Assembly: GCA_951406725.2 (NCBI GenBank)
Contig: OX597819.1
Span: 120,032,001 to 120,096,000 of the forward strand
Origin: Octopus vulgaris
Taxonomy: Eukaryota
Direction: 5' to 3'
DNA length: 64,000 nt
Under the pieces are notes generated by a model. That model did no database searches, was not told where the DNA came from, and saw only the letters and a list, made by a program, of their open reading frames with translations. How positions within the stretch are numbered: position 1 is the stretch's first letter; each line of letters begins with the position of its first letter. This document shows, piece by piece, positions 13,154 to 58,900 of this stretch. The position numbers and the translations under genes were made by a program.

Positions 13154-13574
13154 AGTAAGGCGGCGAGCTGGCAGAAACGTTAGCACACCTGGCGAAATGC
13201 TTTGCGGTATTTCGTCTGCCGCTACGTTCTGAGTTCAAATTCCGCCGAGGCCGAATTTGCCTTTCATCCTTTCGGGGTCGATTAAATAAGTACCAGTTAC
13301 GCACTGGGGTCGGTATGATCGACTTACTCCGTTTGTCTGTTCTTGTTTGTCCCCTCTATGTTTAGCCCCTTGTGGGTAGTGAAGAAATAAGTATTTTGTC
13401 TGCCGCTACGTTCTGAGTTGAAATTCAACCGAGGCCGAATTTGCCTTTCATCCTTTCGGGGTCGATTAAATAAGTAGCAGTTACGCACTAGGGTCGGTAT
13501 AATCGACTTACTCCGTTTGTCTGTCCTTGTTTGTCCCCCCCCCTATGTTTAGCCCCTTGTGGGTAGTGAAGAAA
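13154..13574 (+). mobile_element. tRNA-derived SINE family B with tandemly duplicated 3' part
   Basis: ggcggcgagctggcagaaacgttagca...gagttcaaattcc...tttagccccttgtgggtagtgaagaaat, body repeated from ~13391; TSD TAGTATTTAG at 13144-13153 and 13575-13584. Confidence 0.88.
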
Positions 13575-13651
13575 TAGTATTTAGCGTTTTACGGATTAGA
13601 AAAAAAATAGAAATAATATCAATATCGAGAGCTTCGATAATCTTGAGTGCT

Positions 13652-14100: not shown

Positions 14101-15765
14101 TTTACGTATGAAAATTACTGAGATTTAACGAGCAAGATTACTGAAATATGCCTTAAACATTTACACATTACATTTATGGTTCCCTTCATTTCTTAGTGTT
14201 TGTAATTTCATGCGAATCGATCCCTCATTTCACGTATTCAGATTCACAATTAATGCACATCATTAATAAACAATGGTTGAATGAACGACACGCTATCGGT
14301 GCATCTCAATTCTTAAGTATCTAAAGCCAAAGAAATACAGTTCTATATGACGAGAAAATAAATTTAGATGTAAGAAATATAGCATTTAAAGCAGAATAAG
14401 AACAGATCTAATATAGCGAGAAACGTTGTAAATTATAGCAGGCAAATGAGATGGCTGATATAACATTTGCAGCTCAAAAACAAATCAAAATGAAACTATC
14501 TCACGTTGAATTTTACGAAATGTTTAAGTGGCATTTTTAGAATATTTTCAAGGATTCTAATCACTGAAGATAAACACAGTGTTAAGATTTAATTGTAATG
14601 AGAATGGAATAAAACTAGATAAAGTGTAAATGATTAATTTAAGGATTGTTTATCTTTTTGTACCTTGTGATGAGAAGCTACTATTAAATTATACTACGAT
14701 GATAGAATTTGCGGTGTCTGTAATATAAATCCGGCATATAATTGCTTAATTTTTCGGTGGAATATAAATCATCAAATTATGTCTAAATGGTTTAGACATT
14801 AATACGGTTAATCCCTCTCTGTTGTTTTCGTTTCTCTTAATGTAAAAGAGATGTGTTCTTTAAAATGTTTCATTATAGTAATTCATTTTTTGTAACAAAT
14901 TATATAAATAAAAGACAATGTTCCTTATACTTTTCTTACAACAATTAGCATTCGGGATAGAATCACAAATGATTAAATATTGCTTTCTCATTTAAGAGTA
15001 AGAAATGAATAAAGAAACAGATAAAGAAATACGCTGATAAATGAATAAATAATCGCTTCTTTTAGAGAAAACATCTTTGGCAATTTAAATCTCATTTTCA
15101 GAAATTAATATTTAAGTATACTTCAGGGTGTTTTTTCACACATCAAAGTGTGATCGAATATTTCATTCAAATTGTAAGCACCTGACATTCCAAAACAAGA
15201 AGTCTTCTTGTTTTTGATTTCTAATATGTATATTTACCGTATGTTTTAATATATTGTTTTACTTTCTTTGGTGCGTTTGTCTTGGAGGGATTTTCCTTTC
15301 AATAACATTTTCATATTTTTTTTTATTTATGTATGATGTCTCATCAACATAGTTTGTCTATGTTGGTTATTTTGCAATCTATTATCTTAAATAAATTATT
15401 AATTTATTTCCTGTAGGACACTAAACCGTACAATTAAACAAAGAGCTTTTTTCACAAACAAACTTTCGACAAAGTTATTGAAACATAACACCACCGACAA
15501 TGCTGCATATTGTTGATAATCAATGCAACGCATAAATAATAGGTGAAGAAAAAGTGGAATTCCTGCCCCAGTAAATGAAAGGATACTCTTGGTTATGGCG
15601 GCTTTACGCGGATATGTACACACGCATACTTATACATGCACACACAAATTCTCTCATACAAATATGACTACATGTAAATATACACACAGACAGAAATATA
15701 TAAAAATAGTAACAAACTAACATATACACATCTACACGTTTATAAATAGATACACACATATACCT

Positions 15766-15998
15766 GTTTCTTTATTACCCACAAGGGGCTAAACACAGAG
15801 AGGACAAACAAGGACAGACAAACGGATTAAGTCGCTTACATCGACTCCAGTGCGTAACCGGTACTTAATTTATCGATCTCGAAAGGATGAAAGGCAAATT
15901 CGACCTCGGCGGAATTTGAACTCAGAGCGTAATGGCAGACGAAATACGGCTGCGCATATCACCTCGCGTTCTAACGGTTCTGCCAGCTCGCCGCCTTC
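15766..15998 (-). mobile_element. SINE family B, full length
   Basis: Reverse complement of 28596-28829; 16-bp TSD ATACACACATATACCT at 15750-15765 and 15999-16014. Confidence 0.9.
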
Positions 15999-17628: not shown

Positions 17629-17714
17629 ACTTCGTATCATTTTAACGTCAAAATATTCCATTTAGTTTAAAATATGTTTGTCATCCATTTATTATAAAAC
17701 TTCAACAAAAATAT

Positions 17715-18146
17715 AGGCGCAGGAGTGGCTGTGTGGTAAGTAGCTTGCTAACCAACCACATGGTTGCGGGGTCAGTCCCACTGCGTGGCATCTTGGGCAA
17801 GTGTCTTCTGCTATAGCCCCGGCCGACCAATGCCTCGTGAGTGGATTTGGTAGACGGAAACTGAAAGAAGCCTGTCGTATATGTGTGTATATATATATAT
17901 ATATGTGTGCGTGTGTGTTTGTGTGTCTGTGTTTGTCCCCCCACCTAGCATTGCTTGACAACCGATGCTGGTGTGTTTACGTCCCCGTCACTTAGCGGTT
18001 CGACAAAAAGAGACCGATAGAATAAGTACTGGGCTTAGAAAAGAATAAGTCCCGGGGTCGATTTGTTCAACTAAAGGCGGTGCTCCAGCATGGCCGCAGT
18101 CAAATGACTGAAACAAGTAAAAGAGTAAAAGAGTAAAAGAGTAAAA
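17715..18146 (+). mobile_element. SINE family A, full length
   Basis: Complete copy with (GTAAAAGA)n tail. Confidence 0.92.
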
Positions 18147-19204: not shown

Positions 19205-20063
<859 letters not shown>

Positions 20064-23000
20064 ATGTCAGAGGTCTGGTGAAACCCACTAATATGAGTAA
20101 AATTCCTTACCTTAGGGACTTAAGCACAAGCAACCATGCAATATGCATAGCGCTGACTGAAACGCACCTGTCAAGCAGTATAGCAGATGCAGAAATACAC
20201 GTACCAAAGTATACTGTTTTTCGGTCAGACAGGAAGGAAAGAACTCATGGTGGGGTTGCCCTGTACGTCCGTGAAGATGTCACACCCATAGTACTGTTGA
20301 CACACTCAAACTCAGTCTGTGACACACTGATAGTACACATGAAACAACCGAAAATAGTAATATGTGTCACATATCGGCCACCAGACACCCCTAGTCATGA
20401 AGGAGTGTTTGAAGATAGCCTCAGAAGAATAGAAGAAGTCCTGGACAAACTGGACCAGGGTAACACCATTCTACTGCTGGGAGATTTTAACCTTCCGAAA
20501 GTCAAATGGCCAGATGGCCATCTCCTCCCTGGAATGACATCACTTGAACAGAGACAGACAGAGTCCTTGTTGGCTCTCACACGCAAGTTTTTCATGGAAC
20601 AAGCAGTGCTTCGGCCAACAAGAGGTGAGAATGTCTTGGACCTCTGTTTCACAAGCAACCCGATGCTCATCCACAACATAATGGTAACACCTACAATTCT
20701 CTCAGATCACAACTTAGTAGAGGTAATGATATATGGTATGAGAGAGTTAGTTGAGACGCAGCCATTAGAAAATACCACAGGCCTATCCAGTCTAAACTTC
20801 CATAAGGCAAACTGGAAGAAGATCAACGAAGAGATCCGAAAACATGACTGGAGTGACTTCATCACCACACAAGAGACCAACACACATTTCCAACATTTCA
20901 TGACAACAATACAGAACATATGCCATAAGTTTGTCCCGGAGAAAAAAGCCAGCGGGCATAGGAACGTTATTCCCAGAGACAGGAAAATACTTATGAGGCG
21001 AAGAGCTAAGCTCTCGAAGCAACTGAATGCACGGCAGAGAAACAATAAGGGACTCCACCTGAAACTTTTTGAAACGGAAACTGCACTCAAACTTTCCTAT
21101 GAGAAGGAGAGGGCAGAGAGAGAAGCCAGGGCCATAGAGAATATTAAAACAAACCCTAAAGCTTTCTTTAAATTTGCGAAAGAAACCACCTCGGTACACT
21201 GCAAGATTGGCCCACTCTTTGATAAAAAGGGCTCTCTAACTGAGGACCCCCAAGGGATAAGTGAAATACTAAAGGAACAGTATAAAAGTGTGTTCACATC
21301 CCCTCTGGGGCACATGCAAATCACAAACCCAGAAGTTTTCTTTGATGCCACAACACTCCAAAACCAAACAACAACCATCGACCACATAGACATAACAGAG
21401 AGGGATGTAATATCTGCCATAGAAGAAATGAGAATAAACTCAGCTGCTGGACCAGATGGATTCCCAGCAGTCCTCCTAAAAACATGCAGGCATGCCCTAG
21501 CGGGACCACTGAAGATGCTCTTCAGTGGTTCCTTGGCTAACGGTAAACTGCCCAGGGCGCTAAAAGAAGGCACCATATGCCCTATCCACAAAGGAGGGAG
21601 TAGAGCAGAGGCCAAAAACTACAGGCCAGTCTCCCTGACGTCACACATAAGTAAGGTCATGGAACGAATCATCAGAAAAAAACTGATCACGTTCCTCGAA
21701 GAAACTAACCGTCTCACTGACACACAGCATGGCTTTCGCCCAGGAAGAAGCTGCCTTACGCAGCTGTTACAACACTACGACTGGGTACTGAAACAACTAC
21801 TGGATCGCTCACAGGTGGATGTGGTATATCTCGACTTTGCGAAGGCCTTTGACAAAGTCGACCACGGAGTGATATGTCACAAATTACTCAGACTCGGCAT
21901 AACAGGAAAAGTAGGTGAGTGGATACATGACTTCCTGAAGGACAGAAGCCAGATGGTTGCAGCCAATGGAGCCCTCTCGGGAAAGACACCAATAGCAAGC
22001 GGGGTGCCACAGGGCACAGTCTTGGGACCCTTGCTGTTTTTGGTGGCGCTCTCTGACATGCCCTTGGTAGCACAAACAACATCCCTCACTAGCTATGCTG
22101 ATGACACAAAGGTAGCACAGGCAATCAAAAACCCAGCTGATGCTGACCTTTTACAACAAGATCTGGATGCCATATACAAATGGGCTGAAGACAACAACAT
22201 GCAATTTAATGCTGGTAAATTTCAAGCCTTACAATATCAAGCTGTAAACACATATACATTACAACACAACTATACTGGTCCAGGAGGGATCGAAATCCCA
22301 GTATCGAAATCAATACGGGACCTGGGGATAGACATGAGTGACGATGCATCTTTTTCTTCACACATCGCGAAGGTGGCGACAATGTGCAGACGACTCACTG
22401 GCTGGATCCTGAGGACATTCCGGACAAGAGACTGCGAGACCATGTTGACACTATGGAGGACATTTGTCCTAAGCCGCCTAGACTACTGCTCCCAACTGTG
22501 GTCACCGCATAGTGTCAAACTAACCACAGAGCTTGAGACAATCCAAAGACATTTCACCAAGAGGATTTCCACCATGAAAGAAAAGAACTATTGGGAGAGG
22601 CTTAGGGAACTCAATTTGTACTCCTTGGAACGAAGACGAGAGAGATATGCAGTGATATACATATGGAAAATCCTGGAGGGACTAGCACCAAATTTTGGAA
22701 TTGAGAGCTGTTCCAATCCCCGTACAGGTCGTCACTGTGTGGTGCCAAAGGTCCCGTCTTCCACATCCAGGGTAAGGAGCAGATACTGTAATAGCCTGGG
22801 GTTCAGGGGCCCTCAGCTGTTCAACAAACTGCCAAGAAAACTAAGAGATCTACATGATGCGGATGTGGACATTTTCAAAAAACATCTAGACAAGCTGCTT
22901 TCCGGGATCCCAGATGAACCCACTGCAAGGTACGAAGGTAACCTAAGGGCAGCAGCTACAAACTCTCTCTTAGATCAGTGGCCAGCCACGGCAAACTGGA

Positions 23001-23073
23001 CTTAGAGAGGGTAGCAACAAGGGCGGTGCCCCAGCATGGCCTCAGCCGGATGGCTGAAACAAGTAAAAGATAA

Positions 23074-27089: not shown

Positions 27090-27308
27090 CATTATTTTCT
27101 ACTCTAATTACAAGGACCGACAATTTTATGAAGGGGGCTAGTCGATCAGATCGACCCCAGTACGCAACCGCAACTTAATTTACCGACCCCGCAGGGATTA
27201 AAGGCAAAGTCGACCTCGGCGGAATTTGAACTGAGAATGTAAAGACATACGAAATACCTCTACATATTTCGCCCGGCGTGCTAACGTTTCTACCAGTTCG
27301 CTGCCTTA
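27090..27308 (-). mobile_element. SINE family B-related copy (alternative tail)
   Basis: aggcaaagtcgacctcggcggaatttgaac...ctaacgtttctaccagttcgctgcctt. Confidence 0.8.
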
Positions 27309-28595: not shown

Positions 28596-28829
28596 GAAGG
28601 CGGCGAGCTGGCAGAAACGTTAGCACGCCGGGCGAAATGCGTAGCCGTATTTCGTCTGCTGTTACGTTCTGAGTTCAAATTCCGCCGAGGTCGACTTTGC
28701 CCGTCATCCTTTCAGGGTCGATAAATTAAGTACCAGTTACAGCCTGGGGTCGATATAATCGACTTAATCCGTTTGTCTGTCCTTGTTTGTCCTCTCTGTG
28801 TTTAGCCCCTTGTGGGTAGTAAAGAAATA
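28596..28829 (+). mobile_element. SINE family B, full length
   Basis: 12-bp TSD GGTATAATCAGT at 28584-28595 and 28830-28841. Confidence 0.92.
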
Positions 28830-29927
28830 GGTATAATCAGTCGTATTTTGGGGGGATGTATAGTAATGAAGATAGAATGATCTCTCATCTGGTCACCTAC
28901 TATTACTTTAGATTTATAACTGGAATCATGTTATCAAACTTGCTCTTACTTAACACAATAAGTTGGGAATCATATGACATTTGGTTTATAATTCTAGCAT
29001 GTCAGGCGAATAGTGGGAAATTAGAAAGACATTAGTTCTGTGTCATGAAAGCGAATTATCGCTCTCTCTCTCTCTTTCTATATCTGTCTGTCTATCAGTC
29101 TTTCTCTCTCACTCTCACCCATTCTCTCTCTTTCTCTCTCGCTCAATTGCGCATTCTCTCTTCCCCTCCCCTCCTCTCTCCCTCTCTCTTTCTCACGCAG
29201 CACACACATACAAGATATGTATGTATATATGTGTATGTATGTACTATGTATGTATAAATGTGTATGTGTGTACGTATGTATGTATCTATGTGAACATATG
29301 GCCAAAATTCCGTACGCCAAATCTAACACTCTCCCTATTTCACCTACACTGAACATACATACACCCACATTCTTGTATATTAATATATGTGAGGTGGAAG
29401 GGGTTAGTGTGTGTATGTGTGTGTGTACACATACATACACTCACATGATATATATATATATATATATATATGTAAAACGCATACGCAATCACCTGATCTC
29501 GTATTATTTTGTTTCTGGATAACATTTCTATAGTCTTCTTTACATTTAATGAAATATCTTTGTAGATTTGGCTTAACACTTAAAGCATTCCTCAATGGAG
29601 AATCTGAACCGCTTATTTCGGCCATCTTTTATATCCCGTAGAGGATGATTCTTACGGTTGCCTTTGTAGTTATTGCTTCTCCATCAGCTGACAATGAAGG
29701 CTAGCTGTCAAATTACATGATGTACTTTGGAGTGGGGGTATTTTCTTGTTTGTATTTTTACTATTTTCTTAAATGGTAATTCTGGGGATTATGCCAAAGG
29801 CAACGGTGGTTTCTGTTGGCTGCGCCCCAAAAGGCACTTAATTTGATTAAAATGTCACAACGTTGATTCAGTAAATGCAAACTGCAACTTATTCACTCTG
29901 TTATGTGCACACATCTACTAAATCATA

Positions 29928-35869: not shown

Positions 35870-36087
35870 TCAAAATTTGGTACAAGGTCATCTGGCTTAG
35901 GGGAGGGGGTTCAGTCAATTATATCGACTCCACTGCTCCACTACTCAACTGGTATTTATTTATTATCCCGAAAGAAGGAAACGCAAAGTCAGCCTCGGTG
36001 GAATTTGAATTCAGAAACGTAAAGGTGAACGAAGTACCGCTAAGCATTTTCTCTGGTGTGCTAGCGATTCTTCCAGCACACCGCCTT
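35870..36087 (-). mobile_element. SINE family B, diverged
   Basis: gcaaagtcagcctcggtggaatttgaattcagaaacgt...ccagcacaccgcctt. Confidence 0.7.
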
Positions 36088-36224
36088 ACAGTTAATATAT
36101 ATCAACAAAGAGAATATATATCTATAACCACGCCGAATATGAATATTAGGTAGGTACACGGTTGGTAAAGAAATGCTACTAAGCATAGGCGCAGGAGTGG
36201 CTGTGTGGTAAGTAGCTTGCTAAC

Positions 36225-38548
36225 ACACATGCGCAGTTAGTCAGTTGCTTCCTGTTGAGCCAGAGTGGATGTGAGTCAACCAGCTCCGTCCAATTATAGA
36301 ATAAAGACCAAAAACAGAGAGTTGTCGAGGTGAGTGATTTTGTTTATTGTGAGTTGGGCACAATTTATTGCGTGCTAATTATTATTTCAGTAAGTTGTGT
36401 CCAACTCTGAGACAATTTCGCCTGCTCTCGGCGGCTGCTTTGTTTTTGTGTTTATTAGGAAAAAAAACAGTGGAGGGGCGTATCCTCGGAACCCAATACA
36501 GTTACTGTTAAAATTACCGTTGGCGGTAGCCAGTGCTGTGTTTGGGTTTGTTGAATTTATTCCCTTGTCAGAGTACTTCGCAAGAAAATTATAAAAATAA
36601 GCCACTTTTGGATTACCTTTCGGACCCATTTTTGTGGAGGTTGTGTTACAGTTGCGGCGTTCCAGGTTCAACTAAGGCCGGGAGTACCGTAAGGCCAGAA
36701 GATTTTTGCTGTGTTTTTTTCTGTTTATTAACTTTCTTTTGAACTTCATTTAACTCCCCTTTTTGTTTTTTTTTTTTGTTTATTGCGACTTTCCGTTGAT
36801 TTCTTCCCTTCTGTTGTGCTTTCTCCTTTTTGTTTTTTCAAAAATCTATCAAATTTTATTTGGACTTTTGAACTTTTTTCTTCTCGCTTTTTAAGTTTAA
36901 TTTGAATATATTTAAAAAAAAAAACAACATGGCAATGAAAAATGACAAAATTTTGGAATGGGAAATCATACCGCCTAAAAAGTGGTTAAAAGACCGTGAA
37001 GATAGGACGGTGGTGTTGAGAACCTACTCCAAGGCACTCGACACCATCGCCCTATTCGAAAAGACGGCAATTGAAAAGGAGTTGGCAGAATATTTGCCGA
37101 CAATTAAATTCATTTTCAGGGGTGTCAAATATGCAACGGTGTGGTTGCTATTTGACACCCCTGAAGAGGCTTGCAAATTTGCTAGCAAACCCCTGGAGGG
37201 TAAGGAAATTTTATTCCTGCCCACGTACCAAAAAAAAGAGACTGACGAAAGCTTGGATTTGCGGGCTGCCACCCGGGATAGAACCCAAGTGGATAGAGGA
37301 GACTATCCGCCGGGGTCTGGGTGGCAGCGAAACTAAGCTCCTTAATGTAAAAGTTCTTCCTGCGGCTGCTTGGGTTGGGTCAAAAGCAATTTTAACCCCT
37401 TGGACCCAATCAGCCAATCTGGTTCTTCCAGATTTTTTGAAAATGGCCGGGTGCATGTATCCGGTGATGCTTGAGGGTCGGCCCCCTAAGTGTCATCGGT
37501 GTTTGGAGTCCGGCCATATAAAGAAGAACTGTCCCCGGGAACAAAATAGGATCCCGGAACAGTTAAGTGAAACCCCTGTAGAAGAGGGAATGATAACGGC
37601 CGAGGAAGCAGAGGACTCCTCAAACAGAGGCCGAAGAGGAAGGTGAGCAACAATGGGTGCTCACCAAAGGATACTAGGGATGAGGAGGGAAAGGCGAATC
37701 TTCCGGCCACGGAGGAGACGCACCCTCCCTCAGTTGAAAAAAAAAAAGAAAAAGAGGAAGAGAAACGGGACATTACCGGCTGTCGGTGACATAGCACCGG
37801 AATGTCCCGGAACTACGTCGGTTGGGGTTGTGCCACCGACAGAAGAAGAAATACCGTTGGCAGGAACTGTGCCGCCAACGAAAGAATTGAATATCCCGCA
37901 CCCGAACAAAAACGAGGTATTGATCCTCTTCTATAGAGGCGGAGAGATTGAAAAGGTGATGGAAAAGCACCACAAGGGAGCACCTTTAGCCTTCACACAG
38001 GACCCCGAATGACCTCCGCAGGTAGCTGTGGAGGCCGTGGCGTTCGACGTGACGCTTGGGCTGAAGGAGTTCAATGAGGATTATAGCTTGGTCCCGGGCG
38101 ACGCTAACTCGGAACTCGATTACGTTCTGAGGGAGGCGTGGTGGATGGTGGAGGTCGCGGACACAAGTTATTTCGAGGACGAGTCAAATTGTGATACGAC
38201 TTGAGGGGCCCCGACCTAGAGCTGGCGCATTCCTAAGGGAAGTACAAGCGAGGTCTGGGAGGAAGGGCTTTGTATATTTATTTATATATGTAATTATTGA
38301 ACTATGTTGTTATTAGTAATGGACTGCTAAGTCCAAATATTGAAAAAATTGTAAGAGGTTTAATACCTCGTGTTGTGTTTGTTTTTAAAAGAACAATGTT
38401 TTAGAGAAGCAGAAGTCGGCGGGCGCTTTTTGTCTTCTCCCATCCCAATCATCTTTCTTTCATTATCATTCACTTCATTAATGTCCTCGTCCAGCCCGCA
38501 AAGCTAACTTACTCTATGTACTGCCTTTATGGCAAATGTTATGAAATA
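36225..38548 (+). mobile_element. ORF1-only (RT-less) non-LTR retroposon, L1/Tx1-like
   Basis: Perfect 15-bp TSD AAGTAGCTTGCTAAC (36210-36224 and 38549-38563); ~700-bp 5' UTR, gag-like ORF, 3' end at AAATAAA; no RT or endonuclease motifs. Confidence 0.85.
36929..38204 (+). pseudogene. Disrupted ORF1/gag-like protein (RRM-like segment + CCHC zinc knuckle)
   Basis: MAMKNDK...LFLPTYQKK, +1 shift in the A8 run at 37230-37237, then RLTKAWICGLPPGIEPKWI...EGRPPKCHRCLESGHIKKNC; further stops at 37644 and 38010. Confidence 0.75.
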
Positions 38549-40829
38549 AAGTAGCTTGCTAACCAACCACATGGTTCCGGGTTCAGTCCCACTGAGTGGC
38601 ATCTTGGGCAAGTGTTTTCTGCTATAGCCCCGGGCCGACCAAAGCCTTGTGAATGGATTTGGTAGACGGAAACTGAAAGAAGCCTGTCGTATATATGTAT
38701 ATATATGTATGTGTGTGTGTGTGTGTGTGTGTGTTTGTGTGTCTGTGTTTGTCCCCCTAGCATTGCTTGACAACCGATGCTGGTGTTTACGTCCCCGTCA
38801 CTTAGCGGTTCGGCAAAAGAGACCGATAGAATAAGTACTGGGCTTACAAAGAATAAGTCCCGGGGTTGATTTGCTCGACTAAAAGGCGGTGCTCCAGCAT
38901 GGCCGCAGTCAAATGACTGAAAAAAGTAAAAGAGAGAGAGTAAGCATTTTGCTTTTTTAATTTACACACATTTTATGACAGTTAAAAAATGAAATGGCAG
39001 AAGCAGGATATCTCCCACAAACTTAGTTGATCGCTGTTTTTGAACAGTATATAAAGTGTAGGATCTGCATTGTCATTTTGTCACAAGTATCTATCAACTA
39101 AGTTACTCCACTCGCAGGTGTATTTTTACAATTTAAACAACTACAGGGACGAGATCTGTTTCTCTATCTATTTCTTACGTCATCTTAGATGTTTGTAGTT
39201 TTTTTTAGTCCACAGTATTACTTATTAGAGAGAGACCCTACCGTATGTATATTCACTATACAGTCAGTGCTTTTCAGTATTTTACCTCAGTCAGATTGCA
39301 AAGGTTCGAAAACAGCGTCATTACGTTCTCTCTATCTATATATATTCTGATCACTTCTTAGATTGACAACTGAAACGTTGCCAAAGGCTTTACTGAGGAG
39401 GGTTAGTCAGACGGAAATGTGTCTATTGTATTTCTTTGCAAGATCTCTCTTTAAATATCAGCCCACTTTCAATCTGTATTTTCAATATTCTGCAACAATT
39501 TACTTTGACTAGTCTTCTTGCAGTGAACATTCCTGGTAGTTTTTTTAAATTTTAAACATGCTCAAGGGATGTATTTTCAACTAATGGCTTGGAAAATCTG
39601 TATTGATTGAGGCTGTTCAACTCGCTATATTATTAATGAAATCCAAACCAGATTCGTATTTAGTATGCAGAGCGCTCCCTTGAGGCACTTTCCATCTGCC
39701 ATATTGCTCAAAACTAATTATAAGTTTAGTGCTCACTTCAACGAGTGAAGATGGGTTAACTAACAAAGCTGCATTACTTGTGTAACGTCCACCATTTTAA
39801 CAGAATTTAATGTTCTCTGCAATATCTGTGTGGAACACTTGCTATCTGTTCAATCAAACACAAAAAAAAATCGAAATACCCATTTGTAATTCAGCAAATA
39901 TCTAGAGGGTCAGCAGAGCACCAGTTTGCCTAAAGCCATTTTCTCGGCTTTTAAATACGATATTTCTTTCCCCGATACTAAGATAATATCAGAAAACTTT
40001 CCGTGTGTACATGAATTTTGTCATATTAAAAGCATAGCCATCATTAACAATATTATAGCTAAAAGCTATGCTTGAAGCTATGCTAAAATTACAAACTAAT
40101 TACATTATTATTTTTTTTCTTGTTTTGGGAAATTGTTTTCGCAGAGGCACCATTAATTAAAAATATGACGGTAAAATTGCTGCATAATTAAACTTGATCG
40201 CATTAATAATGATGTGTTTAGAAAACCCGTAGAGATGGCAAAAATTACACAGAAATGTAGCAGTTTATATTTTATGGAATTTTGTTCTGTGATTGGCATT
40301 TGCGCATTGAATTAATTACTTCATTTTGTAGGCAACAAATTTTTCAATAAAAGCAGTGATTATTTCTCTCTATAATACTGAAGCATGAATTATGTTAGTT
40401 TTAAAATAAAAATTTCAAAAAATACCAAAATAAATATTTCTTATTCAGATACAATCTTTCAATTTGTTCAAAGTTAACTAACTGTTGACAGTTAGAACAC
40501 TGCTCCCTCAGAAAATGCAACAGAGTGTAAAGCCTTTGAACGAAACGCTTCGGCAAATATCACAAACTACCATCGTGTTAAAATTGATCATAATTAAGAT
40601 ATAGGCAATAGGCAATGCATAAGAGCCTAGTAACAGCTTAACATGACTCTATTCTCTTGTCCATCACTAAAATGTATTATATAATGAATCGGTTGTATAT
40701 CACATTAATCAGATAATATCTGTACATATTGATTAATTTTCAAATTTGTTGTTTGTGAAAAGCTGCAATCACTAATGACAGCACAATCTGCAAAACTAGT
40801 AACGATAATTAACGTTGCTATTATTTTTT

Positions 40830-44934: not shown

Positions 44935-46712
44935 GACAAAAGAATTTAACATTTACATCATTCAAATTAAAATGGCCGTCGAGGGCATTCAAATTAGTTG
45001 GAATGCAAGGAAGCGTCTTTTCGATCATTTAAATTCGCACCTGAGCATTCAAGTTCGGCATAATTTTATTCAATTTAGCATTAATTTTACATGTGTGATT
45101 TTACTCACATTCTAAGACGTGAATGTTAAAAATGGCAAATTTAAATGGCATATTTTGTCATGCAAATTTTATTGTTGTTCTAGCTACAAGGAAGAAATAA
45201 ATCATGTGATTCTTCTGTCCACGAAAGTTTTTTTCATTGCAACATTCGTAACCGGTCGGTATCAGTGGCATTCTATATCCTTTTCTCTTACACCAACTTG
45301 TAATCATGGAGCCCCGCATAAGGTTCATGCGTATATCGGACGAAGTTAGGGCAAGGCTGGTTGACTCCTTCGAGGGTCGTCAAACTGATTGCCTGCAACT
45401 AGTGGATACACTTGGTATTAAAAGGAGTACTTTCAGATCCATAGTAGCGACCTACTTACGGTTTAGGAGGTGTCACAAGTTGCCCAGAAGAGGTGCTCAC
45501 CACGTTAAGGTTGATAAGGAAATGCGAGCCAGGTTTCAGGTGATTATTGATGCCAACCCACTCGCAACCCTTCAACACATGAAGAGGGACTTCGAGGCAG
45601 CATTGTACGGAAAGCCACCTGATTCTGTGTCTGCAATCTCACGGGCTCTAGGTGGGATTTTGATAACTATGAAGTTGGCCGAAGACGTCCCAGTTTCAAG
45701 AAATGCACCAAGAACTCTGGGAAAGCGTTATGGGTATGTGCATTAGTTCATGGAAGAGAATTGTATTCATTTATGAATGTGGGTACAGCATTTGGACCAC
45801 GCTGTCTTTTGGACGAGCTCCTCGAGGTGTTCCTGTTCGCCGAGTTGTCAAACGTCACTTCCGCGGTGTCGGTAGAAGTCCATCTGGTCCCCCAAACCAT
45901 TGCGAACGATGCCGTTTCACGAAGCTCTTTCGATAAGTTCTTGGTGGAAAAAGTTCCAGCATGTGCCGACATGTTCCCAGCGGATGAATCCGTCTACTTG
46001 ATCTACGACAACGCCCAGCTACATGCTCGGGTCGACATCTCAGATGACCCGAGGATCAGTCTGAAACTCCTGCCTCCCTACTCGCGGTTTCTTAACTCTA
46101 CAGAAATGGCGCAATCTGGCTCCTAGTTGATGTGGTTCCCAAGCGGCTTCAGAAGCTGGTGGTGAATGCCGATGCCTATATCAAATTTTAAATAAGATTC
46201 CATGCTATACACTTTCTTTACATATTCGTTTTTTCTTATAATTTAGTTAATAAATAAATTATAAGTATTTTAAAATAGGGAGTTACTTTTCAATCACCAC
46301 GTATATGCTTTTCCCAAGAAATATTACTTACACAAAAGAACACATAACACAACATAATCTATTCAGAATCAAAGAGGATAAGCATTTGTTGTAATTGTGA
46401 GTTTCTTTAAAAAGATTGAAAAGGTTGGAATGCGATTTCATTTAATAATTAATACCTATGCAAAAATAAAAGAATACATAGAAAAAACAAGGCCACGGTT
46501 GAGTGCTTAAAGCATAAACAATGGAGGAAAATATATGATTATGATAACAATGATCATAAGATAAAACGAAAACAGCCATTGTGCTAAATTGATTGCTCCA
46601 GGAATTAAACAGATTGCTCCGAAACGAATTTGAATGATCCAAAAGACGCTGATTTGAATGATCTCGATGGGCATTTTAATTTGAATGATATAAATGCTAA
46701 ATTCTTTGACCG
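44935..46712 (+). mobile_element. Decayed IS630/Tc1-type DNA transposon with long TIRs
   Basis: Frameshifted transposase at 45327-46126 (HTH region, IVFIYECG, YLIYDNA, LPPYSRFLNSTE); 44935-45060 is inversely matched by ~46605-46712. Confidence 0.75.
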
Positions 46713-55029: not shown

Positions 55030-55031
<2 letters not shown>

Positions 55032-56312
55032 CAAATTATTACATTATATAAAAGGGCTTAGTAAAATAAATTACTTTGCCACATACTGAACTCATTAGAA
55101 ATAGTAGCTAAAAAAACTTTTTTAAAACTATTTCTAATACTTAAAGAAAATCTCTCTCATATTGTGTTTGCTCAATTCAACTCACGAAAGTATGGGGGTA
55201 AAGACATTAAAAAATCAAATGCAAAGGTTATTTGAGAACGTACGTTTCAAGATTAGTCAACTCGACATTTCTATCATCAGCTCAGAACTCCTTGGTTTGG
55301 ATTTGAAAACACTGAAAGTGGGAGCATACCCTTTCGGCTTCTTATCGCTTCTGAAGATCTGCTCGAAACTAACAGTGCCAGCACACCCAGAATATGCAAG
55401 CGAAGAATTTCTGCTCTCCCCTTTCCACCAGCGTGGGTTAAAATCAGTAAACACTATGCTTTTTCGGTAAAATCCGAAACATTAAATAGAGAGAGATGAA
55501 TTATAATTTCAACAATTGAGGGTAAAATTAATTAATTATTAATCAATTTCACCAAGTGTTCAGTATGTAAAGGGACCATTTAAGGCGAATTCAAATTATT
55601 ACATTATATAAAAGGGCTTAGTAAAATAAATTACTTTGCCACATACTGAACTCATTAATGTAATAATTTGAATTCGCCTTAAATGGTCCCTTTACATACT
55701 GAACACTTGGTGAAATTGATTAATAATTAATTAATTTTACCCTCAATTGTTGAAATTATAATTCATCTCTCTCTATTTAATGTTTTGGATTTTACCGAAA
55801 AAGCATAGTGTTTACTGATTTTAACCCACGCTGGTGGAAAGGGGAGAGCAGAAATTCTTCGCTTGCATATTTTGGGTGTGCTGGCACTGTTAGTTTCGAG
55901 CAGATCTTCAGAAGCGATAAGAAGCCGAAAGGGTATGCTCCCACTTTCAGTGTTTTCAAATCCAAACCAAGGAGTTCTGAGCTGATGATAGAAATGTCGA
56001 GTTGACTAATCTTGAAACGTACGTTCTCAAATAACCTTTGCATTTGATTTTTTAATGTCTTTACCCCCATACTTTCGTGAGTTGAATTGAGCAAACACTA
56101 TATGAGAGAGATTTTCTTTAAGTATTAGAAATAGTTTTAAAAAAGTTTTTTTAGCTACTATTTCTAATGAGTTCAGTATGTGGCAAAGTAATTTATTTTA
56201 CTAAGCCCTTTTATATAATGTAATAATTTGAATTCGCCTTAAATGGTCCCTTTACATACTGAACACTTGGTGAAATTGATTAATAATTAATTAATTTTAC
56301 CCTCAATTGTTG

Positions 56313-56320
<8 letters not shown>
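55030..56320. mobile_element. Fold-back of a terminally redundant 560-bp hammerhead-bearing monomer
   Basis: The block at 55030-55097 repeats directly at 55590-55657 (period 560); 55658-56320 is the reverse complement of the same unit in a different circular permutation; (TA)n on both sides. Confidence 0.88.
55978..56029 (+). ncRNA. Minimal type-I hammerhead ribozyme (mirror copy on minus strand at 55233-55284)
   Basis: UGAG-CUGAUGA-U-AGA.aau.GUCG.AGU.UGAC.uaa.UCU-U-GAAAC-GUAC-GUU-CUCA: stem I UGAG/CUCA, palindromic stem III ACGUACGU, GUU triplet. Confidence 0.78.
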
Positions 56321-58444: not shown

Positions 58445-58900
58445 GTCGAGCTGGAAAAAACGTTAGCATGCCGGGCGAAACGTCTAGCGGCATTTCGTCT
58501 GTCTTTACGTTCTCTCTGTTTATCTCCTTCTGGGTAGTAAAAAAAATATGTATTTCGTCTGCCGCTACGTTCCGAGTTCAAATTCCGCAGAGGATGACTT
58601 TGCCTTTCATCCTTTCGGGGTCGATCAAATAAGTACCAGTTAAGCACTGGGGTCGATATAATCGACTTAATCCGTTTGTCTATCCTTGTTTGTCCTCTCT
58701 GCGTTTAGCCCCTTGTGGGTACTAAAGAAATAGGTATTTCGTCTATTTTTATGTTCTGAGTTCAAATTCCGCCGAAGTCGACTTTGCCTATCAGCATATT
58801 CCGGGACAATAAATTAAGTACCAGTTGCGTACTAGGGTCGATCTAATCAACTAGCGCATTCCCACAAAAATTTCGGGCCTTGCGCGTAGAGTAGAAAAGC
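58445..58900 (+). mobile_element. SINE family B, composite/multimeric copy
   Basis: Head gagctggaaaaaacgttagc, then body segments repeated at 58550 and 58735. Confidence 0.8.

Follow-up and report, generated by a model that had tools for sequence, protein, structure and literature searches.

A SINE of Octopus vulgaris interrupted by what is probably a decayed copy of a multi-copy, ORF1-only retroposon

We analysed 64,000 nucleotides of the Octopus vulgaris genome (assembly GCA_951406725.2, contig OX597819.1, positions 120,032,001 to 120,096,000 of the forward strand), hereafter the window, in which a short interspersed element (SINE) is split by an insert flanked by exact direct repeats. We read these repeats as the target-site duplication (TSD) of the insert, which consists of a long 5' untranslated region (UTR), one gene resembling the first open reading frame (ORF1) of long interspersed elements (LINEs), and a 3' UTR. 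The features of the insert and of its host SINE, in window coordinates, are as follows.

36180..36186 (+): left member of the 7-bp repeat pair that flanks the host SINE and is likely the SINE's TSD
36188..36209 (+): 5' head of the host SINE, matching intact copies at 17713, 54251 and 11043, with an A-box-like motif at 36198-36208
36210..36224 (+): left TSD of the insert, 15 bp, or 13-15 bp once the A overlap at the 3' junction is counted
36225-38548: whole insert, 2,324 bp, between two exact 15-bp direct repeats
36225..36928 (+): 5' UTR, 704 bp, T-rich, covered by multi-copy contigs in 4/4 runs
36929..37541 (+): N-terminal part of ORF1, with two predicted RRMs and one CCHC knuckle; frameshift at an A8 run (37230)
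37542..38204 (+): linker and C-terminal part of ORF1, with breaks at 37633, probably at 37737-37747, and at TGA 38010-38012
38205..38548 (+): 3' UTR, 344 bp, ending in AATAAA, with no poly(A) run
38549..38563 (+): right TSD of the insert, an exact copy of the left 15-mer
38564..38940 (+): remaining part of the host SINE, with a B-box-like motif at 38580-38590, the body, a (TA/TG)n stretch and a tail related to a LINE
38941..38947 (+): right member of the pair flanking the host SINE, a 7-mer identical to the left one

An earlier note, made from the letters of this DNA, had placed a 2,324-bp insert with perfect 15-bp repeats between the A and B boxes of a SINE, and the junctions bear this out. 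The repeats are exact, and the right flank of the insert continues the SINE begun in the left flank, in register with all six intact copies aligned; over ~142 columns, the remainder of the host SINE is 89-96% identical to six other copies. The two halves are themselves bracketed by the SINE's own 7-bp repeat, whose match at a fixed place has a chance of about 1e-4, so we regard them as one SINE insertion that was split later. The 15-mer flanking the insert has eight matches in the window at up to two mismatches, against 0.13 expected, a surplus explained by its place in the SINE consensus. At the 3' junction, the last two A's of AATAAA (38545-38550) are also the first two letters of the right repeat, so the duplication is 13-15 bp long. 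The earlier description of an AATAAA end without poly(A) is right about the missing A run, but an AATAAA end and a 15-bp TSD together count two letters twice. At the opposite end, positions 36226-36231 of the insert share a 6-mer with the SINE at 38568-38573, just beyond the right TSD, which could mean that the duplication is longer and imperfect, or that the 5' end resembles the target and helps to prime the second strand.

The description of the SINE head as tRNA-like fared less well. ARAGORN called 0 genes and an intact copy of the head had no tRNA match in Rfam, which leaves the A-box-like and B-box-like motifs, so labelled by their resemblance to the box consensus. Nothing in the window reached an Rfam gathering score, the insert giving one sub-threshold chance match, and the SINE head had no match in prokaryote genomes. 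Three tRNA-derived SINE families are on record for octopus (PMC4758252, citing Ohshima and Okada 1994). The window also contains another interspersed repeat, ~240 bp long and with sub-copies in tandem, at 13157-13582, 15760-15997, 27140-27307, 28597-28834, 35907-36087 and 58512-58852, one old copy lying directly upstream of the host SINE.

The same junctions bear on the explanation that we find hardest to credit, namely that the insert is an assembly artefact, or else a long terminal repeat (LTR) element or DNA transposon. Several of the breaks in ORF1 fall in homopolymer runs, as sequencing errors would, but the junctions are clean and lie within a single SINE flanked by a repeat of its own. 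The insert has neither LTRs nor terminal inverted repeats, its ends sharing only a 9-bp chance match, and no transposase, integrase or reverse transcriptase (RT) was found in it. Dada elements have a TSD of 6-7 bp (PMC3706591), as opposed to the 13-15 bp seen here.

ORF1 starts at ATG 36929, in a frame other than the one first read for it, and its expected stop is TGA 38202-38204; the intact gene would comprise ~425 codons in all. Its closest named relative is the Octopus sinensis protein XP_029652367 (LOC115225585), which is identical at 152 of 205 positions (74%) to the N-terminal 204 codons, read with an X at the A8 run, and resembles the window ORF1 in the linker stretch as well. In this relative the first Cys of the knuckle is missing and the protein ends after 281 aa, so that it looks like another decayed copy. 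The earlier note had seen a single gag/ORF1-like frame, of which the RRM-like segment and the CCHC knuckle stand. The frame itself is interrupted by the frameshift at 37230, a second frame switch that tblastn with the O. sinensis protein puts near 37622-37640, probably a third frameshift at an A11 run (37737), and an in-frame stop. All four sequencing runs that we compared with the window include contigs that are one letter short at 37230 and contigs that are one letter longer behind 37633, so these two breaks are likely particular to the window copy or to its assembly. The comparison covered the insert outside 37731-37770, the stretch around the third frameshift, and the contig variants considered are 40 of 148 rows. 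Ten of those listed fall in the N-terminal 204 codons, five synonymous and five nonsynonymous. At the nonsynonymous sites, the residue of O. sinensis is that of the contig majority in three cases, that of the window in one and neither in one, a pattern that lends mild backing to decay of the window copy. Inside ORF1, at 37115-37165, two perfectly inverted 17-bp arms are separated by a spacer of 17 nt; at 37116 the window departs from the majority of contigs.

We assessed the domain architecture of ORF1 by profile and by predicted fold. The CCHC knuckle of the window ORF1 matches Pfam zf-CCHC with an E of 0.002-0.0035, which is below the curated cut-off; Pfam gave no Transposase_22 match in the ORF and no family for its C-terminal region, and a PDB sequence profile search returned zinc knuckles only. 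An AlphaFold2 model (pLDDT 80.5, pTM 0.61), built on a 37-sequence alignment and representing XP_029652367, not the window ORF1, has two beta-alpha domains. Foldseek searches with this model placed tandem-RRM proteins on top, at an E of about 1e-4 and with low whole-chain TM. In VIA-align, the first domain matched RRMs with, for example, Z 8.4 and a root-mean-square deviation (rmsd) of 2.7 over 81 residues, and the second with Z 8.6 and rmsd 2.5 over 75 residues; nearly all of the 50 rows were of RRM type, at middling Z values. The Atlas neighbours of ORF1 are CCHC and ZCCHC3-RBD clusters (0.89-0.93; ZCCHC3-RBD at 0.89-0.90), which is a lead only. On this predicted fold, ORF1 is of Type I (two RRMs plus CCHC), like that of Tx1 and not of the mammalian L1 type. 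Type I ORF1s are typical of Tx1 in non-mammalian animals and are found in other clades too (PMC5203782), so the type is not diagnostic of Tx1.

The protein also has many relatives. A phmmer search returned 47 of them at E up to 1e-3, and among the ten that we looked up the six with a named source are all from octopods (O. sinensis, O. vulgaris, O. bimaculoides and Argonauta). A second O. sinensis gene model carries another ORF1 start, with 40 of 46 residues identical. This octopod RRM-RRM-CCHC family is large and diverse, has many partial members, and is annotated as uncharacterized host genes, an indication that retroposon ORF1s make up many of the 'uncharacterized' CCHC proteins in octopus annotations. 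Distant relatives are 22-36% identical. Five octopod relatives have a short C-terminal motif in common, and a profile of the C-terminal domains of five relatives found no significant match in the C-terminus of the insert (E 2). Several relatives sit on contigs of 1.7-2.2 kb, which fit ORF1-only units and may represent further ORF1-only families, without amounting to proof; one distant relative sits on a 5.7-kb contig. A profile search of proteins returned only two. Related loci were found neither in viral contigs nor in metagenome contigs, the latter searched with P0003 and with the distant relative P0053.

Contigs from other sequencing runs identify the insert as one member of a repeat family. 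Pieces of it are present in 20 of the 24 listed runs, from 11 studies and under five organism labels (best share 0.49), and all 30 insert bins have depth in each of the four compared runs (X1, X2, X5 and X12, under three organism labels). Dozens of variants are spread across the full insert, UTRs included, with a single variant letter carried by up to 71 contigs; whole-insert coverage with dozens of variants in all four runs is what a repeat family would produce. The single-copy status that would have spoken for a processed pseudogene or a one-off deletion is therefore not what we find: contig variants run over the full length, and two O. sinensis loci carry related sequence. Six high-depth pieces from X12 are 2.3-7.3% diverged from the window copy and eight pieces from X1 are 4.8-14.4% diverged, levels that suggest a young subfamily plus older copies. 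A 178-bp contig from the 5' UTR reached a depth of 432 in X5, against 5.8-9.6 for six lone diverged pieces; this suggests that ~50 near-identical copies keep the 5' UTR, a rough figure in that depth is not a copy number. The 3' UTR is covered in 4/4 runs. Depth over the insert peaks at 38395-38479 in X1, X5 and X12 and is near its highest there in X2, where high-depth contigs pass the stop codon into the 3' UTR (rows 38244-38303), and it dips at 38225-38309. X12 is an RNA run by guess only, and no run is listed as an RNA holder of the insert. Joints leading from 38375 back to 38310 in X1 and X2, at a depth of about 1,000, point to a subfamily with a ~65-bp tandem duplication in the 3' UTR.

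These variants also speak against a host-gene origin, in which the insert would be the processed pseudogene of a domesticated ZCCHC3-like gene such as LOC115225585 of O. sinensis. The mRNA-like anatomy of the insert (5' UTR, ORF, 3' UTR, AATAAA) would suit such an origin, as would a closest named protein that has three RefSeq accessions at one locus and the Atlas link to ZCCHC3-RBD clusters. Against this, there are dozens of variants over the whole length, in the UTRs too, and the protein family has numerous and varied members, many of them partial. The RefSeq relative, for its part, differs from the insert in being annotated as an uncharacterized host protein, and with 281 aa and a broken knuckle it looks decayed. 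We consider this origin very improbable.

The insert carries no copying enzyme of its own. The earlier note had argued that there is no room for a second open reading frame (ORF2), which we confirm, and there is no ORF2 remnant either: in all six frames, the window copy has no remnant or motif of an RT or an endonuclease (EN). We put a probability of roughly 80% on the insert being one copy, decayed but to all appearances full-length, of a 2.3-kb ORF1-only retroposon that is present in many copies and is likely mobilized in trans, through target-primed reverse transcription, by the ORF2 enzyme of an autonomous L1-Tx1-type element. Several findings weigh against this reading. No single contig extends over the full insert, and neither junction is bridged under a 31-letter standard. 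One contig (X12 record 16, depth 75) matches 38033-38182 and then has 132 unmatched letters, which follow 38182 only if record coordinates are given in the record's own orientation, a convention that we draw from a break at 37414 shared by X12 record 12 and X5 record 30. Some relatives may thus have another 3' part, and the extension may be another 3' end or belong to an ORF2-bearing parent. The window, whose only LINE shares the SINE tail, holds no autonomous partner with the insert's 3' end. The window copy has no poly(A) tail, and assignment to a clade needs an RT, which is absent from the element.

Some of these points would fit a different history, in which an ordinary autonomous Tx1-type family, by premature polyadenylation or internal deletion, gave rise once or occasionally to a product without ORF2, and there would be no self-propagating ORF1-only family. 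The insert ends right at AATAAA, a different 3' structure could lie behind both the departure of the X12 contig after 38182 and the dip in depth, and O. vulgaris has L1-Tx1 families that are full-length and active (PMC13282606). However, the 344-bp 3' UTR is covered at high depth in four runs and no trace of ORF2 is left; a search for longer homologous proteins, itself weak evidence, found none among 1,831 candidates. We judge this history unlikely.

Candidate helpers for an ORF1-only retroposon exist in octopus: 80 L1-Tx1 families are known from O. vulgaris, of which 13 have been active recently. Their recent insertions number 421, average about 5.4 kb and add up to 2.29 Mb (PMC13282606). The LINE in the window is not an obvious one. 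Its frame, at 19733-23070 (+), runs for 1,090 uninterrupted codons with Pfam matches to RVT_1 (E 3e-30) and Exo_endo_phos, and its 3' end (23015-23070) matches the SINE tail (copy 17713-18140) at 86% identity over 57 bp, and does not match the insert. To judge from this match, it is likely the partner LINE of the SINE, and possibly young.

If the insert is indeed an ORF1-only retroposon, its life cycle may be pictured as follows. Transcription would likely start from the element's own long 5' UTR, acting as an internal promoter, and the ORF1 protein, with its two predicted RRMs and its CCHC knuckle, would likely coat the element's own RNA. The conservation of this protein suggests that master copies need ORF1. 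A borrowed endonuclease and RT likely nicked the SINE just 3' of the A box, where the duplication is now seen; priming would have taken place on the AATAAA end of the RNA with a 2-nt A overlap, and the second strand would have been cut 13-15 bp away. The A and B boxes now lie 2.3 kb apart, which would silence that SINE copy, and the window copy later gained the frameshifts and the stop that it carries.

Whether the element aims at SINEs is a refinement of this reading, in which the helper's endonuclease cuts the SINE head or a tRNA-like motif mimicked there at a fixed position, and most copies would lie in SINE heads; we hold it to be close to an even call, on the doubtful side. In its favour, SINE heads make up just 1.4% of the window (whole SINEs 8.1%), and Tx1 families are known to target other transposons and small-RNA genes (PMC4494074). 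Three contig pieces, 13-15% diverged, reach into the TSD letters, by 8 letters (X2 record 17), 6 letters (X5 record 25) and 16 letters (X1 record 8), and no pile of loose ends was found at 36225 or 38548 among the 24 rows listed (1,862 more exist, besides 503 unlisted rows of joints, and SINE contigs dominate both). On the other hand, one site has been seen directly. All three pieces fall under the 31-letter bridging standard, those of X2 and X5 are probably one locus, and that of X1 continues for 23 letters with no match to the SINE body, assuming the record's own orientation. Twelve SINE heads in the window span the target site, of which one is interrupted and 11 are empty (11/12), and this fits a targeted as well as an untargeted element. 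Genome-wide, SINEs account for 11.6% of O. vulgaris (PMC13282606). The targets described for Tx1 elements include piggyBac, Mariner, Harbinger and LTR elements, U2, 5S and the spacers of tRNA arrays (PMC4494074, PMC3706591), and a preference has been called where more than 20% of copies lie in one repeat (PMC4494074). As a tentative proposal, the insert would be a coding hyperparasite, an ORF1-only element that relies on a borrowed Tx1 enzyme and has the RNA polymerase III promoter of the dominant octopus SINE as its target. It is equally tentative that hundreds of thousands of SINEs would then serve as harmless landing pads, each disabled when hit. The element could be one branch of an old and diverse octopod ORF1-only radiation.

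Several known systems resemble parts of this arrangement. HeT-A of Drosophila is a Gag/ORF1-only non-LTR element that relies on the RT of a different element and goes to a fixed destination; it attaches to chromosome ends with no TSD, whereas the insert is internal and has one. HAL1 (half-L1) of mammals carries a poly(A) tail and a TSD; the insert has a TSD, and its window copy ends at AATAAA without an A run. The earlier note had proposed a HAL1-like family. HAL1 is a non-autonomous, multi-copy, ORF1-only derivative of L1 (PMC5753468), and the likeness holds in that the insert is RT-less and likewise non-autonomous, ORF1-only and multi-copy. It fails in the ORF1, which here has two RRMs plus CCHC in place of the coiled-coil/RRM/C-terminal domain arrangement of the mammalian Type II ORF1 of L1 and HAL1. 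With an ORF1 of Type I, the insert is HAL1-like in lifestyle only; its host is a mollusc, and an origin independent of HAL1 is likely. Among Tx1-clade LINEs, Tx1L, Keno, Dewa, Mutsu and Tx1-Mar share the Type I ORF1 (PMC5203782), and entry into a multicopy repeat is known from Tx1L, which inserts into Tx1D, and from Tx1-Mar, which inserts into Mariner-N4 (PMC4494074). The insert differs from them in having no ORF2, and SINE heads are not among the Tx1 targets named in the available part of PMC4494074. The crocodilian pair SINEU-3/Tx1-Mar offers a non-autonomous retroposon thought to inherit the transposon target of its Tx1 helper (PMC4494074), though SINEU is short and non-coding and the insert is 2.3 kb long and encodes ORF1.

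We regard the element as a new family, in a group whose curation is poor, ORF1-only retroposons and transposon-targeting Tx1 elements both being known already. A literature search, with Repbase and most subscription papers outside its scope, found no description of the family or of a LINE specific to SINE heads. The family may already be present in the 2026 O. vulgaris transposable element library (Zenodo, PMC13282606) as an L1-Tx1 or unknown consensus. If targeting is real, SINEs would join the list of fixed targets, and parasitism would be three layers deep, with the SINE depending on a LINE, the ORF1-only element on Tx1, and the element inserting into the SINE. Such a system would also provide a natural test of why non-autonomous elements retain ORF1, and would point to a new sequence-specific endonuclease in the helper.

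Two other features of the window are of note. At 44939-46707, inverted ends (44939-45050 and 46612-46707, 73%) enclose broken frames that look like a Tc1/IS630-type transposase. At 55030-56320, stretches of 68-156 bp are duplicated exactly (100%) in direct and in inverted orientation, which reflects either a recent fold-back rearrangement or an assembly artefact.

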